IMG/VR virus record: IMGVR_UViG_3300027741_000160 | Location: 1 to 34,430 of that record | Origin: a virus | Taxonomy: Duplodnaviria > Caudoviricetes | Strand: one strand, 5' to 3' | Length of the DNA: 34,430 bases | In this document: positions 5,100 to 17,165 of the stretch, one piece after another | Layout of the letters: each line of letters starts with the position of its first letter | How positions within the stretch are numbered: position 1 is the first letter of the stretch | Made by a program: the position numbers and the translations under genes | Notes under the pieces: model-generated | Told to the model about the DNA's origin: nothing | Database searches by the model: none | Seen by the model: only the letters and a program-made list of their open reading frames with translations

Positions 5100-5107
5100 T
5101 ACTTTTG
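5100..5107 (+). promoter_or_regulatory. Bacteroidota housekeeping promoter -7 element for the early genes
   Basis: TACTTTTG matches TAnnTTTG; intergenic, between the terminator and the first early ORF. Confidence 0.65.
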
Positions 5108-6824: not shown

Positions 6825-7014
6825 AGTAGTTTTAACTCAAAAGAAGAACGAAGAATGTTTTGCTTATTCTTGCTTCCAGCACATTATGAAAAGCAATATG
6901 GCTTTGAATGTTGACACCCGTCGGATTATAATGGATATGGCTGCGAACGAAGTAATCAAAGGCAAGATGTCTGAAGAATTTTTTAACTCTTTATTTCCGA
7001 ACGATGCTAATTAA
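6799..7014 (+). CDS. Hypothetical protein
   Basis: ORF overlapping both neighbours; start uncertain (6799 or 6808). Confidence 0.6.
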   Translation: MQAMISPSKVVLTQKKNEECFAYSCFQHIMKSNMALNVDTRRIIMDMAANEVIKGKMSEEFFNSLFPNDAN

Positions 7015-7237
7015 AGAAATTGATAAGTATCAACAAACTGCGGACATTTTAAACGAGAGGGGTATTAAACCCTTCTCGGCCCGCACCTGGTATTGGGAAA
7101 ACGTACGTTCAATTGCGTATTATAATAGAAAAAACGCAAAAGCAGGGTTTATAAAAAGGCCCGATGTTATGGCAGTAATTAGAGAAGTAACTATAAAAAT
7201 GCTCGAAGATGCAAGGGAAAGACAAACAGTTGATTGA
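7004..7237 (+). CDS. Small helix-turn-helix DNA-binding protein (recombinase-domain-like HTH)
   Basis: YQQTADILNERGIKP..A..W...NVRSI pattern. Confidence 0.5.
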   Translation: MLIKEIDKYQQTADILNERGIKPFSARTWYWENVRSIAYYNRKNAKAGFIKRPDVMAVIREVTIKMLEDARERQTVD

Positions 7238-7911: not shown

Positions 7912-8075
7912 AAGAACTAACCTTCAACGAGTGGCAAGACCACATCGCACGGCAATTAGAAGTCGATCAAAATAAAATTAATAACGAACCTAAATTACAA
8001 CTAAATGCAAAAGTCATTCAAAAGTTATCACGAATCAAATCCGAAAATTTACGATCAATTCAAGGAAATCGCTAA
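7908..8075 (+). CDS. 55-aa hypothetical protein (not in ORF track)
   Basis: MKELTFNEWQDHIARQLE...; ATGA overlap with the preceding gene. Confidence 0.55.
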   Translation: MKELTFNEWQDHIARQLEVDQNKINNEPKLQLNAKVIQKLSRIKSENLRSIQGNR

Positions 8076-8280
8076 CCTTTATATTAACAAAGGCGAAAGG
8101 CGAATCAAGGCCGAAACCATCTGCGAGATCATTCGATTTCAGTTGATGAAAGAGTTCAATGATGGTCATAAGTTCATTAGATTTTTTGCCCAGGATTATG
8201 CAAAAAAGTTCGAAAATGATTTCCCGCAACACGTTGGAATTTTTACAAAAAGATTGGTAAATTTTGAACTTGAAGATTAA
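8005..8280 (+). CDS. Hypothetical phage protein
   Basis: HE.NP.IY..F...A...G...I.E.IR...YA..F...P...G.F..R pattern. Confidence 0.7.
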   Translation: MQKSFKSYHESNPKIYDQFKEIANLYINKGERRIKAETICEIIRFQLMKEFNDGHKFIRFFAQDYAKKFENDFPQHVGIFTKRLVNFELED

Positions 8281-8285
8281 TTTAC

Positions 8286-8293
8286 TATATTGC
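8286..8293 (+). promoter_or_regulatory. Probable Bacteroidota-type promoter -7 element (variant)
   Basis: TATATTGC, one T short of TATATTTGC, with TTG motifs upstream; lies immediately before the structured RNA. Confidence 0.45.
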
Positions 8294-8298
8294 AATAC

Positions 8299-8396
8299 AA
8301 TAAGTCAAGATGGTGAGAGGTCTTGATTTATTCTAAAGGTTTATCATACCTAACTAGGCCAGTCTACTCTCTCACGTAGCTGGCCTTTTTATTTTT
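8299..8396 (+). ncRNA. Two-hairpin kissing-loop RNA / attenuator leader ending in an intrinsic terminator
   Basis: 13-bp stem 8299-8311/8320-8332 with loop GGTGAGAG; stem 8356-8367/8376-8386 with loop TCTCTCAC followed by a T-tract; the loops are reverse complements over 7 nt. Confidence 0.7.
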
Positions 8397-8399
8397 AAT

Positions 8400-8648
8400 A
8401 TGGAAAATTTAAGAGTTAATGCAATTTTATTTTTAGAAGTAAAAATGAAGGAAAAAATGCAATTATTAAATGATGAATTTTATATTGAATATGGAGATAT
8501 ATTTAAATCTGCATATAATAAACAAGAATTTCAAATAGAAGATGCTTGGGGTCAAGGATATTGGCAAGGAACTTGTGATACACGAAATGAAAAAACAAAT
8601 TATATTGATTTTGATCATTATATTCAAAAAAATTATGGCAGCATTTAG
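8400..8648 (+). CDS. Hypothetical protein
   Basis: 82-aa AT-rich ORF between the RNA element and the initiator. Confidence 0.65.
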   Translation: MENLRVNAILFLEVKMKEKMQLLNDEFYIEYGDIFKSAYNKQEFQIEDAWGQGYWQGTCDTRNEKTNYIDFDHYIQKNYGSI

Positions 8649-9414
8649 AAAAATTTCCGTTTCCTTTTGGTCGGATTCGTTTGTGGGGGATTTGACACCA
8701 GAACAAAAATATTTTTATTTGTATCTGATGACTAATGATAAGACAACTCAATGTGGCATTTACGAAACATCGATTCGGAAAATGTCTTTTGATACTGGTT
8801 ACAATCAAGAAACGGTATTAAAATTAATTTCATTCTTTGAGGAACAAAACAAAATCAGATTTTCAAAAGAAACCAATGAAATTGCTTTATTAAACTGGGT
8901 CAAGTACAATGATTCAACATCGCCAAAAGTTACGGCTTGCGTTGATAAAGAACTTTTAAAGGTTAAAAATAGAGTATTGATACAGTATCTATACAGTATG
9001 GATACACATCCACAAGAAGAAGAAGAAAAAGAAGAAGAAAAAGAAAAAGAATACCAAGAAGAAAAAGAAGAAGAAAAAGATCCTTTTTACATTCCTACGG
9101 AACGTGACCTTCTTTTTAATAAGTGGTTTGATTATAAAAAACAAAAACGATCTAAGTACACAAAAATTGGTATGGATCAATTGTTTAAAGAATGGGAATT
9201 AGTTGGTAATTTTGAATTAGAAAAAGCGATTAATCATTCGATAGCTAATAATTATCAAGGGTTATTTGCACCTAAAGAAAATAAACCTTCAACCAATTCA
9301 GAACCGGCACCTGGTAAGATGACTAAAGGTCTAATACAACAACAAGAAATTTATAACGAACTTTTAGAACAAATAGAAAATGGAACTTACATTAATCCCT
9401 TTGCAAGAAAATAG
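8635..9414 (+). CDS. Phage replication initiator (replisome-organizer/DnaD-like)
   Basis: MAAFRKI..SFW.D.FV.DLTPE.KYFYLYLMTN N-terminal domain, E/K linker, and W..YK...AI..SIANNYQGLF C-terminal domain; start reassigned to 8635. Confidence 0.8.
   Translation: MAAFRKISVSFWSDSFVGDLTPEQKYFYLYLMTNDKTTQCGIYETSIRKMSFDTGYNQETVLKLISFFEEQNKIRFSKETNEIALLNWVKYNDSTSPKVTACVDKELLKVKNRVLIQYLYSMDTHPQEEEEKEEEKEKEYQEEKEEEKDPFYIPTERDLLFNKWFDYKKQKRSKYTKIGMDQLFKEWELVGNFELEKAINHSIANNYQGLFAPKENKPSTNSEPAPGKMTKGLIQQQEIYNELLEQIENGTYINPFARK
8969..9080. repeat. Putative replication origin: four 11-bp iterons plus a purine tract inside the initiator gene
   Basis: ATAGAGTATTG/ATACAGTATCT/ATACAGTATGG/ATACACATCCA, followed by about 65 nt of GAA/AAA repeats. 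Confidence 0.6.
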
Positions 9415-10195
9415 AATTGAAAAATATTCTGAACCAATTTTAGCAGATAGCAAGCTAACAAAAACCGAAACAGTAATTTATCAAGCAAGCACAAAGCAGA
9501 AAATTATGTATTTGTCTGAAAAAGAAAAATTACGGATTGCAAATACAATTCTTTCGATGGTTAAAGTTAGACTTGGATTAAAAGAAAGAGCCAAGCACGA
9601 GGATTCCGTAGAAACTCAAATGATTTTTTCAGATTTAAACAAATTTGATCATTTAACGGAAGCTGAAGTATTATTGGCCCTTGAAAATGGACTTGATGGT
9701 AACTACCTAAAAGAACACGAATCAAATGTGTTTTGGAATCCTTCCAATTTTGTTCTTTGGATTAAGAGATATTTGCTCGAAAAGAACGATGTAATGCGGA
9801 AGGTTACAAATGCCAAGCCAGCAGATTACATTAGGCATACTCCAAAAGATAAAGAAATTAAGCAACAAGGAATTTTATGTGCCAATGATTATGCTGATCT
9901 TTATGCACGAACTAAAGATGCAGATCGCACGTTCAAATATCCAGCCGGTTTAAATTTTCTTTATGATCTTGGTGTCCAATACGGATGGCTTCATTTAGAT
10001 GAGGAAATAATAGATCAAATTAAAATGGAAGTTGCACCAAAGTTTTTACATTTGGTTAAAAATCCGGCTGATGTTTTTGAGAATACGGAATTTATTTGGG
10101 CCTATAAAGCTGAATGTTACAAAAGGTTTATAAAAGACCTGGTAACGTTTGAGGTTCGAATTGATACAAACGGAAAAATCAAACCCATAGGCTGA
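9380..10195 (+). CDS. Putative helicase loader / replication partner
   Basis: Directly downstream of and overlapping the initiator; function inferred from position. Confidence 0.45.
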   Translation: MELTLIPLQENRIEKYSEPILADSKLTKTETVIYQASTKQKIMYLSEKEKLRIANTILSMVKVRLGLKERAKHEDSVETQMIFSDLNKFDHLTEAEVLLALENGLDGNYLKEHESNVFWNPSNFVLWIKRYLLEKNDVMRKVTNAKPADYIRHTPKDKEIKQQGILCANDYADLYARTKDADRTFKYPAGLNFLYDLGVQYGWLHLDEEIIDQIKMEVAPKFLHLVKNPADVFENTEFIWAYKAECYKRFIKDLVTFEVRIDTNGKIKPIG

Positions 10196-10273: not shown

Positions 10274-10657
10274 ATGAAAATTAATTTACATTACTCGAAA
10301 ATTAATACGACTGGAGACATTCCCGTACTTGAATTTGATGAAATATCACATATTTGTTATTTTATTGAAGAACTTGAAATTCATGATGAATCATCTGAAT
10401 TACTTTTTGAGGGATTTAAAAAAGTATTTTTATTAACTGATGGTTTAGAAATTTTTGTAACACAAGAATATTATATTTTATTTGATGTATTTCGCTATAA
10501 ATTATTTGCTTTATTTGAAGAAGATGATTTAAATCACGTTCATTTATTTGAATGTGGATCATATGAGGAAGCCTATGATTTAGCATTAATGATCAAGGAA
10601 AATGAAAATTTAAGTGAAAGTTTACAAATTGGAGTTGTTGGTCAAAAAATTGGATAA
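10274..10657 (+). CDS. Acidic hypothetical protein (moron-like)
   Basis: 127-aa very AT-rich ORF with its own upstream spacer. Confidence 0.7.
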   Translation: MKINLHYSKINTTGDIPVLEFDEISHICYFIEELEIHDESSELLFEGFKKVFLLTDGLEIFVTQEYYILFDVFRYKLFALFEEDDLNHVHLFECGSYEEAYDLALMIKENENLSESLQIGVVGQKIG

Positions 10658-11010
10658 TGAAAAAAATAATTATAATAACGATTTGCTTTGCATTGCTCAC
10701 GCAGATCACTCACGCATCCGATGTATTCTTTAATATTTCAAGGCAGACAACACTCGACTATTTAATTAGTTGGGTGTTTGCCTTTTCTTTGGAATCATCT
10801 ATCTTGATTTTTACATTACTTGGTAAGAGAAACACGGCTATCTTTTTTGGGCTTATTTCGTGGTTGATAAATCTTCTTTATTACTGGGTAGAAGTCGGAA
10901 TGACTCAAAAGTTTGTTGCGATGAATATTATTTCATTGATCATACCGGTAACCATCTTTTTTTATTCGGAACTAATTAAAACTGACAAACGTAAAAACTT
11001 ATTAAAATAA
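10657..11010 (+). CDS. Multi-pass membrane protein
   Basis: About 4 hydrophobic segments; TAATG coupling at both ends. Confidence 0.75.
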   Translation: MKKIIIITICFALLTQITHASDVFFNISRQTTLDYLISWVFAFSLESSILIFTLLGKRNTAIFFGLISWLINLLYYWVEVGMTQKFVAMNIISLIIPVTIFFYSELIKTDKRKNLLK

Positions 11011-11931: not shown

Positions 11932-12213
11932 ATGACACTCCGTTCAATTCCTATTCCTAATTCTAATTTTTGTAATAAATTAGATCAAGAATTATCGAAA
12001 CAAGAATTTATCGATTTAGTTAATGAGCCTCCGCACTACAAAAGTAAAGGCGGTATTGAATCTATTGAGGTAATTGAATCCTTTGAATTAAATTTTAATT
12101 TAGGGAACGTGATTAAGTATATTTTAAGATCCGACAAAAAGGGTAACAAAAAACAAGATTTGGAAAAGGCACAATGGTACCTAAAAAGGGAAATTGAAAA
12201 GTTTAAAGGTTGA
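11932..12213 (+). CDS. DUF3310 / SaV-like protein
   Basis: VN.P.HY...GIE.IEVI...FNLGNVIKY..R..KK....QDL.KA.WYL. Confidence 0.85.
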   Translation: MTLRSIPIPNSNFCNKLDQELSKQEFIDLVNEPPHYKSKGGIESIEVIESFELNFNLGNVIKYILRSDKKGNKKQDLEKAQWYLKREIEKFKG

Positions 12214-12731
12214 TGTCAAGGAATGAAATCATTTCAACGCTATACGAATCAAAGGAGATTGCCCAGGCACTCCGAAAGATGCAACCGGCTTCACTCCGAG
12301 AAGAATTAAGACAAGAAATGTTTATGGCGCTATGTAATATTTCAGATGAGAAATTTTGGGGAATTTATAATAATAATGGTATTCCAGGTTTAAAGTTTTG
12401 GTTGGTTCGTACGATGCTTAATATGATTTATTCAACCGGCATTAATACTCCATTCTTTCGCCATTTCAGACAAAAAAATGAGGAGTTTAATGTAAACCAC
12501 GAAGTAGTTAATTTCGATTCTTTAAACGAAGAAATCCAAGAACGAAAGGAAATGTTATTTTCAAAGATAGAGGAAGGAAGAAAGCAATTAAGTTGGTACG
12601 AAAATACATTGCTTGAAACTTATATGGATTTAGGATTTAATCAAAAGGAATTAAGTCGCAAAACAAAAATTCCATATCAATCCGTTATTAAAACCATTAT
12701 GATAATCAAAAAGAAACTTCGAGAGGAATGA
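12210..12731 (+). CDS. Sigma70/ECF-like transcription regulator
   Basis: REELRQEMF region-2-like segment and a C-terminal region-4 HTH (QKELSRKTKIPYQSV); sits at the early/late boundary. Confidence 0.65.
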   Translation: MMSRNEIISTLYESKEIAQALRKMQPASLREELRQEMFMALCNISDEKFWGIYNNNGIPGLKFWLVRTMLNMIYSTGINTPFFRHFRQKNEEFNVNHEVVNFDSLNEEIQERKEMLFSKIEEGRKQLSWYENTLLETYMDLGFNQKELSRKTKIPYQSVIKTIMIIKKKLREE

Positions 12732-14207: not shown

Positions 14208-14858
14208 ATGAAAGAACCGAATCGAGAACGAAAACAAGAGATTAAGTATAGTGTTGTTTTAAATGAGGAGCAAAAAGAAGCAAGGAATTTAATTAAAGAG
14301 AACCAAATAGTTATAGTAACGGGTAGGGCTGGATCGGGTAAAAGTTTAGTATGTGCATTGGCTTCCTTGGATTTTTTGAACAAAAAACAATGCAATCATA
14401 TTTACATTACCAGGGCAACGATTGAGGTTGGTAATTCTTTGGGATACCTTCCAGGTTCATTGGATGATAAATTCAATCCTTATTTAGAAGCATTCCAAGA
14501 AAACCTGGTTAAGTGTGCCGATAAAATAAAGATTCATACAATGGTAAAGGATGAGAAGATTGTTGCTTATCCGGTGCAGTTTATCAGAGGTAAAACGATT
14601 GATGATATTTTAGTAGTTGAGGAGGCCCAAAATTTAACAAAGGCTGAAATGTTAGCCATATTAACAAGGCTGGGTAAAACCGGTAAGATCATTGTGAATG
14701 GGGATAATGAGCAGAAGGATATAAAAGAAGGGTATAATGGTTTAAGTTTTGCCATTGACTTATCTAAAAAGATTGAAGGAATTAAGTGGATAAAATTAAA
14801 AGAGAATCATCGATCTGATTTAGTAGGTCAGATTCTTGATTTTGAATATAATAATTAA
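14208..14858 (+). CDS. phoH: PhoH-like ATPase
   Basis: Walker A GRAGSGKS, LGYLPG, FIRGKTI, EEAQN, LTRLGK, GD..Q.D, HRSDLV. Confidence 0.92.
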   Translation: MKEPNRERKQEIKYSVVLNEEQKEARNLIKENQIVIVTGRAGSGKSLVCALASLDFLNKKQCNHIYITRATIEVGNSLGYLPGSLDDKFNPYLEAFQENLVKCADKIKIHTMVKDEKIVAYPVQFIRGKTIDDILVVEEAQNLTKAEMLAILTRLGKTGKIIVNGDNEQKDIKEGYNGLSFAIDLSKKIEGIKWIKLKENHRSDLVGQILDFEYNN

Positions 14859-15618: not shown

Positions 15619-16027
15619 AGATATTGACACGCAAAGACTTTTGGAATGGGCCGAAAAATATATCGACCATTGCCTTGAATCTACCAAAGAGATTGCCACT
15701 TCATCGGGAGTTAAAACTATTCGTGAACGGCATTTACCAACTATTAGTTTTTTCTTATTAGTATGGTTGCCACGGCAAAACTTTGAATTTTATAATAGAT
15801 CAACTTATTATCAAGTTTTGTCTAATGTGAATCATCCTTGTCACGATGCAACAAAGCAGATAGATGAGATATTTAGATCATTGGCGGCGGATGTAGTGGC
15901 CAATGAAGGTAAAGGTATATTCTATGCTAAGAATCTTTTAGGATGGTCAGACAAGGCAAAGAACGAAGAAAAACAAGAGATAATCATAAGTTTTGCAGAC
16001 GAAAATAGTCCTTCCGAAACCGCATAA
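15602..16027 (+). CDS. terS: Terminase small subunit (putative)
   Basis: PTI..F...IFYAKN.LGW.DK pattern; directly upstream of terL. Confidence 0.7.
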   Translation: MARPNKDIDTQRLLEWAEKYIDHCLESTKEIATSSGVKTIRERHLPTISFFLLVWLPRQNFEFYNRSTYYQVLSNVNHPCHDATKQIDEIFRSLAADVVANEGKGIFYAKNLLGWSDKAKNEEKQEIIISFADENSPSETA

Positions 16028-17165
16028 AAATCAAGCCAAGGTTTTAAACTCCAAAGCAAGATTCAAGGTTCTAATGTCGGGCAGACGGTGGGGCAAGTCA
16101 TTGATATGCCAAGTCATCACATTTTTAGAAGCGGTCAAAGGTAAAAAGGTTGCATACATTACACCTACTTATCAACTTGCAAAGGTTTTCTTTGATGAAC
16201 TTTGCATCTTAATCCCCGATACCATTGCCACGGCAAATCGTAGTGATTTAACATTTAAATTAACAAGTGGTGGATCAATTCGATTCTTTACTGGTGAAAG
16301 ACTTGATAATCTTCGGGGCCTTAAATTTCATTACGTTATTATTGATGAAGCATCATTCATAACTGATTTAGAAAGCGGTTGGAATAATTCAATACGGCCA
16401 ACGTTAACCGATTACCAGGGCCGTGCTATATTCCTTTCAACTCCACGAGGAAAGAATTATTTTTATTCTTTATTTCTTAAAGGTTTAGAACCGAATGCAG
16501 AATGGGAATCCTTTAAATATTCGACCTATGATAATCCATATATCCGTAAAGAAGAAATTGATTCTGCAAGAATGAGTTTACCGGAGGTTGTATTTGAACA
16601 AGAGTATATGGCGAACCCAGCAGAAAACTCCGCCAATCCGTTTGGAAGCCAGGCGATTGGGAAGTGTGTTTCTGAAATGTCAATTAATCCGGTTAAATGT
16701 TACGGAATAGATTTAGCAAAATATTCCGACTGGACTGTAATTATCGGATTAGATAATAGTGGAAATGTGGCTTATTTTGAACGATTTCAAAATGATTGGG
16801 CCTCCACGCAAAACAAAATACGGAATTTATCAAAGGTTCCGATGTTAATTGATAGTACCGGTGTAGGCGATCCGGTAGTTGAGCAATTACAACGAGAGGG
16901 ATTAAATGTGGAGGCATTTAAATTCACAAGCCAAAGCAAACAAGATTTAATGCTGGGCCTTCAAGTGGCTATCCATCAAGAACGGATTCATTATCCCGAA
17001 GGAATTATTAAAGAGGAACTTGAAATCTTTGAATATCAATATAGTTCACACGGTGTAAAATATTCTGCACCTTCCGGTTTTCACGATGATTGCGTGATGG
17101 CTTTGGCTCTTGCCTGGCGAAAGTTTGATTTTAAATCAGGCACCGGTAGATATAGTTTTGCGTAA
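15993..17165 (+). CDS. terL: Terminase large subunit
   Basis: GRRWGKS, VIIDEA, STPRG, GIDLA, HDDCVMALALA; TTG start. Confidence 0.95.
   Translation: MQTKIVLPKPHKNQAKVLNSKARFKVLMSGRRWGKSLICQVITFLEAVKGKKVAYITPTYQLAKVFFDELCILIPDTIATANRSDLTFKLTSGGSIRFFTGERLDNLRGLKFHYVIIDEASFITDLESGWNNSIRPTLTDYQGRAIFLSTPRGKNYFYSLFLKGLEPNAEWESFKYSTYDNPYIRKEEIDSARMSLPEVVFEQEYMANPAENSANPFGSQAIGKCVSEMSINPVKCYGIDLAKYSDWTVIIGLDNSGNVAYFERFQNDWASTQNKIRNLSKVPMLIDSTGVGDPVVEQLQREGLNVEAFKFTSQSKQDLMLGLQVAIHQERIHYPEGIIKEELEIFEYQYSSHGVKYSAPSGFHDDCVMALALAWRKFDFKSGTGRYSFA

Follow-up and report, generated by a model that had tools for sequence, protein, structure and literature searches.

A conserved three-hairpin leader with exchangeable loop codes at the replication genes of phages, likely an RNA switch

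The letters of an RNA loop set incompatibility among IncI plasmids, in which translation is controlled by a counter-transcribed antisense RNA, and the C4 RNA of P1 and P7 can, we assume, be grouped with P4 CI as a comparable leader immunity RNA. In the rep pseudoknot of IncI/IncB/IncK, which is treated with its antisense RNA in PMC10724649, one loop is contested by a partner in cis (on) and by an RNA in trans (off). P4 CI, which acts with seqA/seqC, is an RNA from the leader itself that causes premature termination ahead of replication genes; it is excised from a longer transcript, with target sites both upstream and downstream of it, as outlined in the section of PMC4825925 that deals with it. 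According to the same section, the target in trans of the short, terminated form of Gifsy-1 IsrK is its own read-through transcript, where it activates translation of an antiterminator cascade; that section mentions no terminator with a kissing loop. In pT181 and pIP501 a kissing-initiated RNA control acts on a terminator ahead of the rep gene by means of an opposite-strand RNA and alternative stem pairing (PMC5703833 and PMC4878617, in the passages on these plasmids). In the guanidine-IV riboswitch, as presented in the corresponding passages of PMC11611296, the P1 loop is complementary to the loop of a terminator stem, and zipping of this stem makes the linker shorter and so works against the kiss between the loops. 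The kiss is stabilised by guanidine, and the gene downstream is mepA.

Against this background we analysed one virus record of 34,430 bases, the whole of which is called the window below, and in it a leader with three hairpins, P1, P2 and P3, in which the loop of P1 and that of the terminator-type hairpin P3 are complementary. This topology is shared with guanidine-IV, from which the leader differs in the replication genes that follow it, in its allelic loop centres and in the extra P2 in its linker; it does not lie upstream of a mepA-type exporter, the genes downstream being initiators, nucleases and short ORFs. Compared with P4 CI, it has two complementary sites only, one of them in the terminator loop, and its carriers yielded no integrase; compared with IncI, it likely acts through termination, and a search turned up no conserved antisense promoter; and, in contrast to pT181 and pIP501, its partners lie on the same strand and pair loop to loop. 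What it would share with IsrK is a short form acting in trans, with P4 CI an own-leader RNA that terminates transcription, with IncI a loop contested in cis and in trans, and with pT181 and pIP501 a terminator controlled by kissing. An earlier note on this DNA had likened the element to P4 CI, P1 C4 and plasmid antisense systems, and this likeness holds as a concept but does not reach to a third target site or a conserved antisense promoter, neither of which was found; for that reason the leader is, on sequence grounds, not a member of P4 CI, C4 or pT181. It appears to resemble guanidine-IV in topology and P4 CI, IncI and pT181 in purpose, and to fail a defining feature of each.

The earlier note could not assign the element to an RNA family, and Rfam 15 gave no match at gathering score in the window or in 13 loci of diverse members, the best weak match scoring 22.6 bits against a cut-off of 100. 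A literature search, which covered few subscription papers, found no paper describing the leader. In the portion of PMC10690425 concerned, two unnamed candidates are placed upstream of similar genes, DNAVirus_4859 (106 nt, 40 sequences) before HTH_36, Phage_rep_O and DUF4373 genes and DNAVirus_187 (49 nt, 122 sequences) before DUF1376 and DUF4373 genes; both have the terminator marked 'no', with 1 and 3 covarying pairs respectively. Compared by gene context and description only, the leader may be one of these candidates, whole or in part.

The window is 99% complete, has a 129-nt end repeat and carries all 28 of its ORFs of at least 130 aa on the plus strand. Its PHROG matches include an Erf-like annealing protein, a replisome-organizer initiator, terminase, portal and tail fibres, and the host is inferred from the promoter boxes to belong to the Bacteroidota. 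The element itself lies on the plus strand and opens with a promoter-like box of the Bacteroidota type TAnnTTGY (TATATTGC, 8286-8293), from which a start near 8298 is predicted by the box-to-start spacing in PMC9723704, the pertinent part of which places TAnnTTTG and TAnnTTGY at -12 to -5. Hairpin P1 follows (8299-8311/8320-8332; 13 bp including 2 G-U), and its 8-nt loop (8312-8319) holds a kissing heptamer of the pattern GU-N-R-N-AG (8313-8319), recognised from the sequence and the family alignment. Behind it come the terminator-type hairpin P3 (8356-8386), with a bulged U8363 and a loop at 8368-8375, and a U-tract (8386-8396). The heptamer of loop 3 (8369-8375) is the exact reverse complement of that of loop 1. 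Thus every feature that the earlier note had read from the letters, namely the promoter-like box, P1, the terminator-type hairpin, the U-tract and the exact complementarity of the two loops, is present in the sequence and the fold. The linker that it called short is there, but holds a small conserved hairpin of 4-7 bp, P2 (8337-8351), supported by the fold and by family conservation, which shortens the distance between P1 and P3. An extension of the loop helix by one G-U pair could not be upheld: it would take up G8320, the closing base of P1, and relatives differ in the letters that flank the heptamers. The conserved kissing unit is therefore 7 bp.

The minimum free energy of the element region was -33.6 kcal/mol (z -4.1; equally stable shuffles 0/200), and the spaced 7+7 complementary pattern occurred once in the window and in none of 100 shuffles. 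The minus strand folds less well (-28.4), which, together with the G-U pairs in the stems, favours a plus-strand RNA. Of the terminators predicted between genes of the window, P3 is the strongest in the stretch that runs from the early promoter box at 5100 to the late region. It would therefore halt transcription arriving from upstream as well and control access to the genes behind it, which include a weakly sigma-like ORF (12210-12731, E 0.035). The prediction that ranks P3 strongest placed no minus-strand terminator at P1. A separate consensus terminator scanner did not call P3, probably because of the bulge. The replication initiator behind the leader, of the replisome organizer type, occupies 8632-9414, with 8632 as its homologous start (phrog_6251, E 3e-45; phrog_1701, E 6e-28). 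The element does lie ahead of this initiator, but in the window genome an 82-aa ORF without a family match (8400-8648) intervenes; it is missing from the close relatives L005 and L011, in which the initiator stands directly behind the terminator. The overlapping gene at 9380-10195, a helicase loader by position only, cannot be named as the loader it had been taken for, since it has no family match and its 21 relatives are unnamed or hypothetical.

Relatives were gathered by an initiator protein search and by DNA patterns, which gave at least 134 elements among the matches listed. Loop letters were imposed by two of the DNA patterns, three others imposed the loop-1 flanks only, and the protein search and one DNA pattern imposed none. 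In an alignment of 46 members, 98.5% of 1,334 cells pair; in the loop-loop helix all 322 of 322 cells are Watson-Crick, with two-sided changes at three pairs (in 16, 15 and 1 sequences), and its covariation score was reached by 0 of 500 shuffles, slid controls pairing in at most 50%. Across the same 46 sequences 10 of the 12 counted pairs of P1 change on both sides, and covariation supports 3/3 pairs of the upper stem of P3. Compensatory changes between the loops, for which the earlier note had asked relatives to be searched, were thus found, and loop complementarity is conserved here as in the profile matches. The profile, with both loops hidden, was built from 134 elements chosen for complementarity and returned at least 131 distinct complete matches, every one of which (131/131) has at least 7 Watson-Crick pairs between the loops of P1 and P3. 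Among elements from the loop-blind protein search, 30/30 distinct ones were loop-matched, the profile having found 39 of 64 loci; the loop-blind DNA pattern gave 61/61 (85 of 120 loci found, among the matches listed), and the remaining sources 59/59, 42/42 and 4/4, again among the matches listed. The profile matched none of 121 bacterial terminator loci, and shuffling the loop partners left a mean of 34 and a maximum of 51 matches of 134. A structure-only screen yielded 157 candidates. Of these, 130 had at least 7 loop pairs and a single one had 6; there was no candidate with 5, and the 26 with at most 4 were mostly unrelated terminators plus two misfolded members. While the stems of the family hold many G-U pairs (141 in P1, 113 in P3), its kissing helices showed neither G-U pairs nor mismatches as intermediates. 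On this comparison of sequences the element is a real conserved three-hairpin leader with exchangeable loop codes, since relatives keep the loop match while changing its letters.

A TAnnTT-type box precedes 134 of the 134 collected elements (TAnnTTTG in 101), and 7-9 T occur in the 9 nt after the stem in all 134, both features being partly imposed by the search patterns. P2 has 3-8 bp in 133/134, with a median of -3.0 kcal/mol and letters conserved across two subfamilies, and the family median for P3 is -15.2 kcal/mol. Among the initiator loci that the profile missed, L034 and L071-L077 have diverged leaders in which P1 is short, P3 is long and the loops match each other in letters of their own, and a relaxed screen of 386 candidates added L507, L629, L686 and a second copy in L014. 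The kiss is thus retained by leaders of diverged sequence in the same slot (L034, L071, L077, L507 and L629). In L034 and L507 the polarity is swapped, with a pyrimidine-rich heptamer in loop 1 and a purine-rich one in the terminator loop. Across 26 whole records, 24 of 672 terminator-like hairpins were loop-matched, 21 of them these leaders and 3 weak and chance-like, in a screen that overlooked several known leader copies. L089 (2826-3006), before a distant initiator, shows another design, with a 12-nt upstream stretch complementary to a segment inside a long terminator-like hairpin.

A strict screen found one leader copy in each of 21 genomes. Two records carry a pair of leaders: G409 has tandem leaders of different loop versions (L014, 2484-2594 and 3460-3590), one before a short gene and an initiator and the other before the gene of a NUMOD4-HNH nuclease, with a long replication gene further downstream, and G423, a 59-kb record, has two leaders of the same version (L865, L866) before two different initiators, possibly as two related genomes joined in assembly. 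In a collection of isolated phages, no similar DNA was found beyond one 26-nt chance match, and initiator matches covered the N-terminal half only and came from Bacillota-type phages. Model R1 gave weak matches in 6 of 151 genomes sampled from the phylum of G001, each of which proved on inspection to be a plain terminator (0 of 5 handles), and one initiator type matched 3 of 401 genomes, with the leader design in none (200 nt upstream, inspected by eye); neither the R1 scan nor the initiator scan found a prophage copy or a host.

The family holds at least 14 matched versions of the heptamer, and a few further diverged ones were also seen. Variation is concentrated in the three central kissing pairs, the outer ones being nearly fixed. 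At position 4 the loop has a purine in 133 of the 134 collected elements and in 13 of 14 versions. U-turns play a role in fast loop recognition, and this UNR-like purine fits a fast-recognition loop. The energies of matched duplexes lie between -7.1 and -10.7 kcal/mol, and mismatched duplexes mostly lose more than 3 in comparison, with some non-matching versions cross-pairing well, down to -8.5. A mimic of a tRNA anticodon loop was considered and rejected, as the loop-3 centres include ACC (17/134) and AUC, anticodons that, to our knowledge, bacteria generally lack.

Identical versions recur in unrelated scaffolds, which a small allowed set could explain, and versions are independent of the initiator family. 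In pairwise comparisons among 20 genomes chosen to span the versions, G407 and G432 are 92% identical over 86% and differ in version, as do G437 and G441 at 85% identity. Pairs with 90% identity over the upstream 200 nt differ in version in 26 of 46 cases and those with 90% downstream identity in 51 of 94, the pairs in neither set being independent. Since 40 of 45 upstream-identical (90%) pairs differ in their downstream gene, exchange of this gene is no less frequent than that of the version, and version turnover may be ordinary mosaicism. Parsimony gave 7 version changes among 86 members of subfamily A and 10 among 38 of subfamily B, which per pair is not above P1; in subfamily A the central kissing pairs have 7, 3 and 1 changes against 2-11 in the stem pairs of P1. 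These comparisons indicate that versions are exchanged freely between leaders, and the parsimony and pair counts give no sign of selection for new specificity beyond ordinary exchange.

As in plasmid antisense systems, the element typically occupies the leader of a replication initiator: in 76 of the 134 collected elements the gene directly downstream belongs to an initiator class (phrog_6251, Lin1244_N or HTH_36, confirmed on representatives). The link to replication initiators drawn from the window thus holds across several initiator families. Another 26 precede two more classes that are initiator-sized, a description by size only, and 32 precede other, mostly short or nuclease genes; an ATG lies 8-17 nt after the element in 128/134. 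The slot at 8397-8632 and its equivalents in relatives form an insertion hot spot for unrelated short ORFs or homing nucleases. Upstream, the gene is not constant among carriers. In the window it encodes a basic, helical protein of 91 aa (8005-8280; phrog_13625, 88-91 aa), conserved and ending at the promoter box in many carriers. It has a confident predicted fold (pLDDT 84), with no clear match in a PDB sequence search or Foldseek, a weak best structural match (Z 6.5, rmsd 4.3 over 71 residues) and, in the Atlas, relatives that are hypothetical only.

No recurring third version-matched site was found in 94 loci or 21 genomes, in a search confined to longer, perfect targets. A minus-strand TAnnTTTG box lies within 120 nt downstream in 24/134 elements, in variable coding sequence, and a search for this box across the 134 elements found no conserved antisense promoter. 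Integrase, resolvase and ParA (PF00589, PF00239 and PF13614) were found in none of 46 carriers, 39 of which are at least 90% complete; that no clear integrase was seen in the window thus holds for its relatives too, and these genomes give no obvious reason for copy control or immunity, although other routes of maintenance may exist. A small HTH_3 gene occurs in 15/46 carriers and not in the window.

We propose, at about even confidence, that the leader is an attenuator in which a kiss in cis antiterminates and the terminated RNA probably acts in trans; it is in any event likely to be an RNA switch that sets the level of replication proteins. RNA polymerase would start at the base of P1, near 8298, and loop 1 would capture the emerging loop-3 heptamer while the 3' arm of P3 is still unavailable. 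With the linker made shorter by P2, this kiss in cis would hinder full zipping of P3 and favour read-through. Transcripts stopped at the U-tract would form an RNA of ~95 nt displaying both loops, which on accumulating would kiss growing leaders in trans, block their cis kiss and restore termination. The outcome would be negative feedback on initiator synthesis between genomes of the same version, weak between those of different versions. The direction of the cis kiss is suggested by the guanidine-IV precedent (PMC11611296, in the passages cited), and the trans step by the display of the loops, the orthogonal versions and the analogy with IsrK, P4 CI and IncI. In a rough distance model with P2 folded, the linker reaches in 27, 73 and 109 of 134 elements for bends of 0, 60 and 90 degrees, and with P2 open, which costs ~3 kcal/mol, in 134/134. 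The model is compatible with cis antitermination; as the geometry is not decisive, a complete terminator might form alongside the kiss, which might even promote termination. The finished RNA might also be self-kissed and inert in trans. As a further step, which we offer tentatively and at well under even confidence, a self-antisense attenuator of this kind would sort non-integrating phages into interference groups by a three-letter loop code; in a co-infected cell, phages with the same code would then hold back one another's replication and would need neither a repressor protein nor an antisense gene to do so.

The trans step would be dispensable if the leader were a purely cis device, in which the kiss sets a fixed terminator leak, in either direction, or a timing delay, and the versions are neutral variants shuffled by recombination. 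Such a device would suit kissing pairs that turn over no faster than stem pairs, flanks that are recombination hot spots on both sides and a recurrence of versions that the position-4 purine and narrow energy range explain without any role in trans. We nevertheless find it doubtful, for the kissing helix shows none of the G-U or mismatched intermediates present in the stems, and the upper stem of P3 is held by covariation, which displays loop 3 ready to kiss in the finished RNA. Alternatively, the terminated 95-nt RNA could itself be the product, compact and self-kissing or oligomeric, as a protein decoy or scaffold, read-through being an unregulated leak. Its own promoter box and terminator, the P2 letters conserved in two subfamilies and the compatibility of the kiss with both stems when P2 is open can be read in this way; an RNA product is unlikely, however, given a scaffold whose sequence diverges freely and a leader that stays directly ahead of initiators of unrelated families or of genes inserted before them.

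Conserved loop flanks and P2 letters, the topology of P1 loop and terminator loop shared with guanidine-IV (PMC11611296, as above) and the basic protein of 88-91 aa often encoded just upstream would all be accommodated if a ligand or protein, as in a guanidine-IV-like riboswitch or with a phage antiterminator, switched the kiss in place of an RNA in trans. We hold this to be quite improbable, because the central loop letters are free, the flanks change and the polarity is swapped in L034 and L507, so that few unpaired bases are invariant, and because the upstream gene varies. A structure at the level of DNA, such as origin or priming hairpins, would fit the replication region and a pure Watson-Crick kissing helix that holds on either strand; it is very improbable in view of the promoter box and U-tract that bound the element, the abundant plus-strand G-U pairs in the stems and the poorer fold of the minus strand.

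The leader is thus a well-supported RNA family without an Rfam match at the gate of phage replication, whose carriers have no detected integrase or partition gene. If the trans step of the proposed attenuator is true, it would give phages a minimal, RNA-only means to count their own genomes or exclude kin, and nature supplies at least 14 matched loop versions with which this can be tested directly. In hosts with Bacteroidota-type promoters, the same versions would serve as orthogonal terminator switches; such switches were difficult to obtain by mutating pT181, according to the part of PMC4878617 on this subject.

Several minor observations concern the rest of the window. A PhoH-family gene lies at 14208-14858 (Pfam, E 1e-48), and the terminase type at 15993-17165 occurs in just 9 of 46 carriers, the packaging modules being mosaic. 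A stable hairpin followed by a U-run (10745-10790) within the ORF at 10657-11010 is kept in G407 and G432. The 77-aa ORF at 7004-7237, which has no Pfam or PHROG match, is conserved upstream in relatives, and its pattern is, we presume, reminiscent of the DNA-binding recombinase domain of serine integrases.
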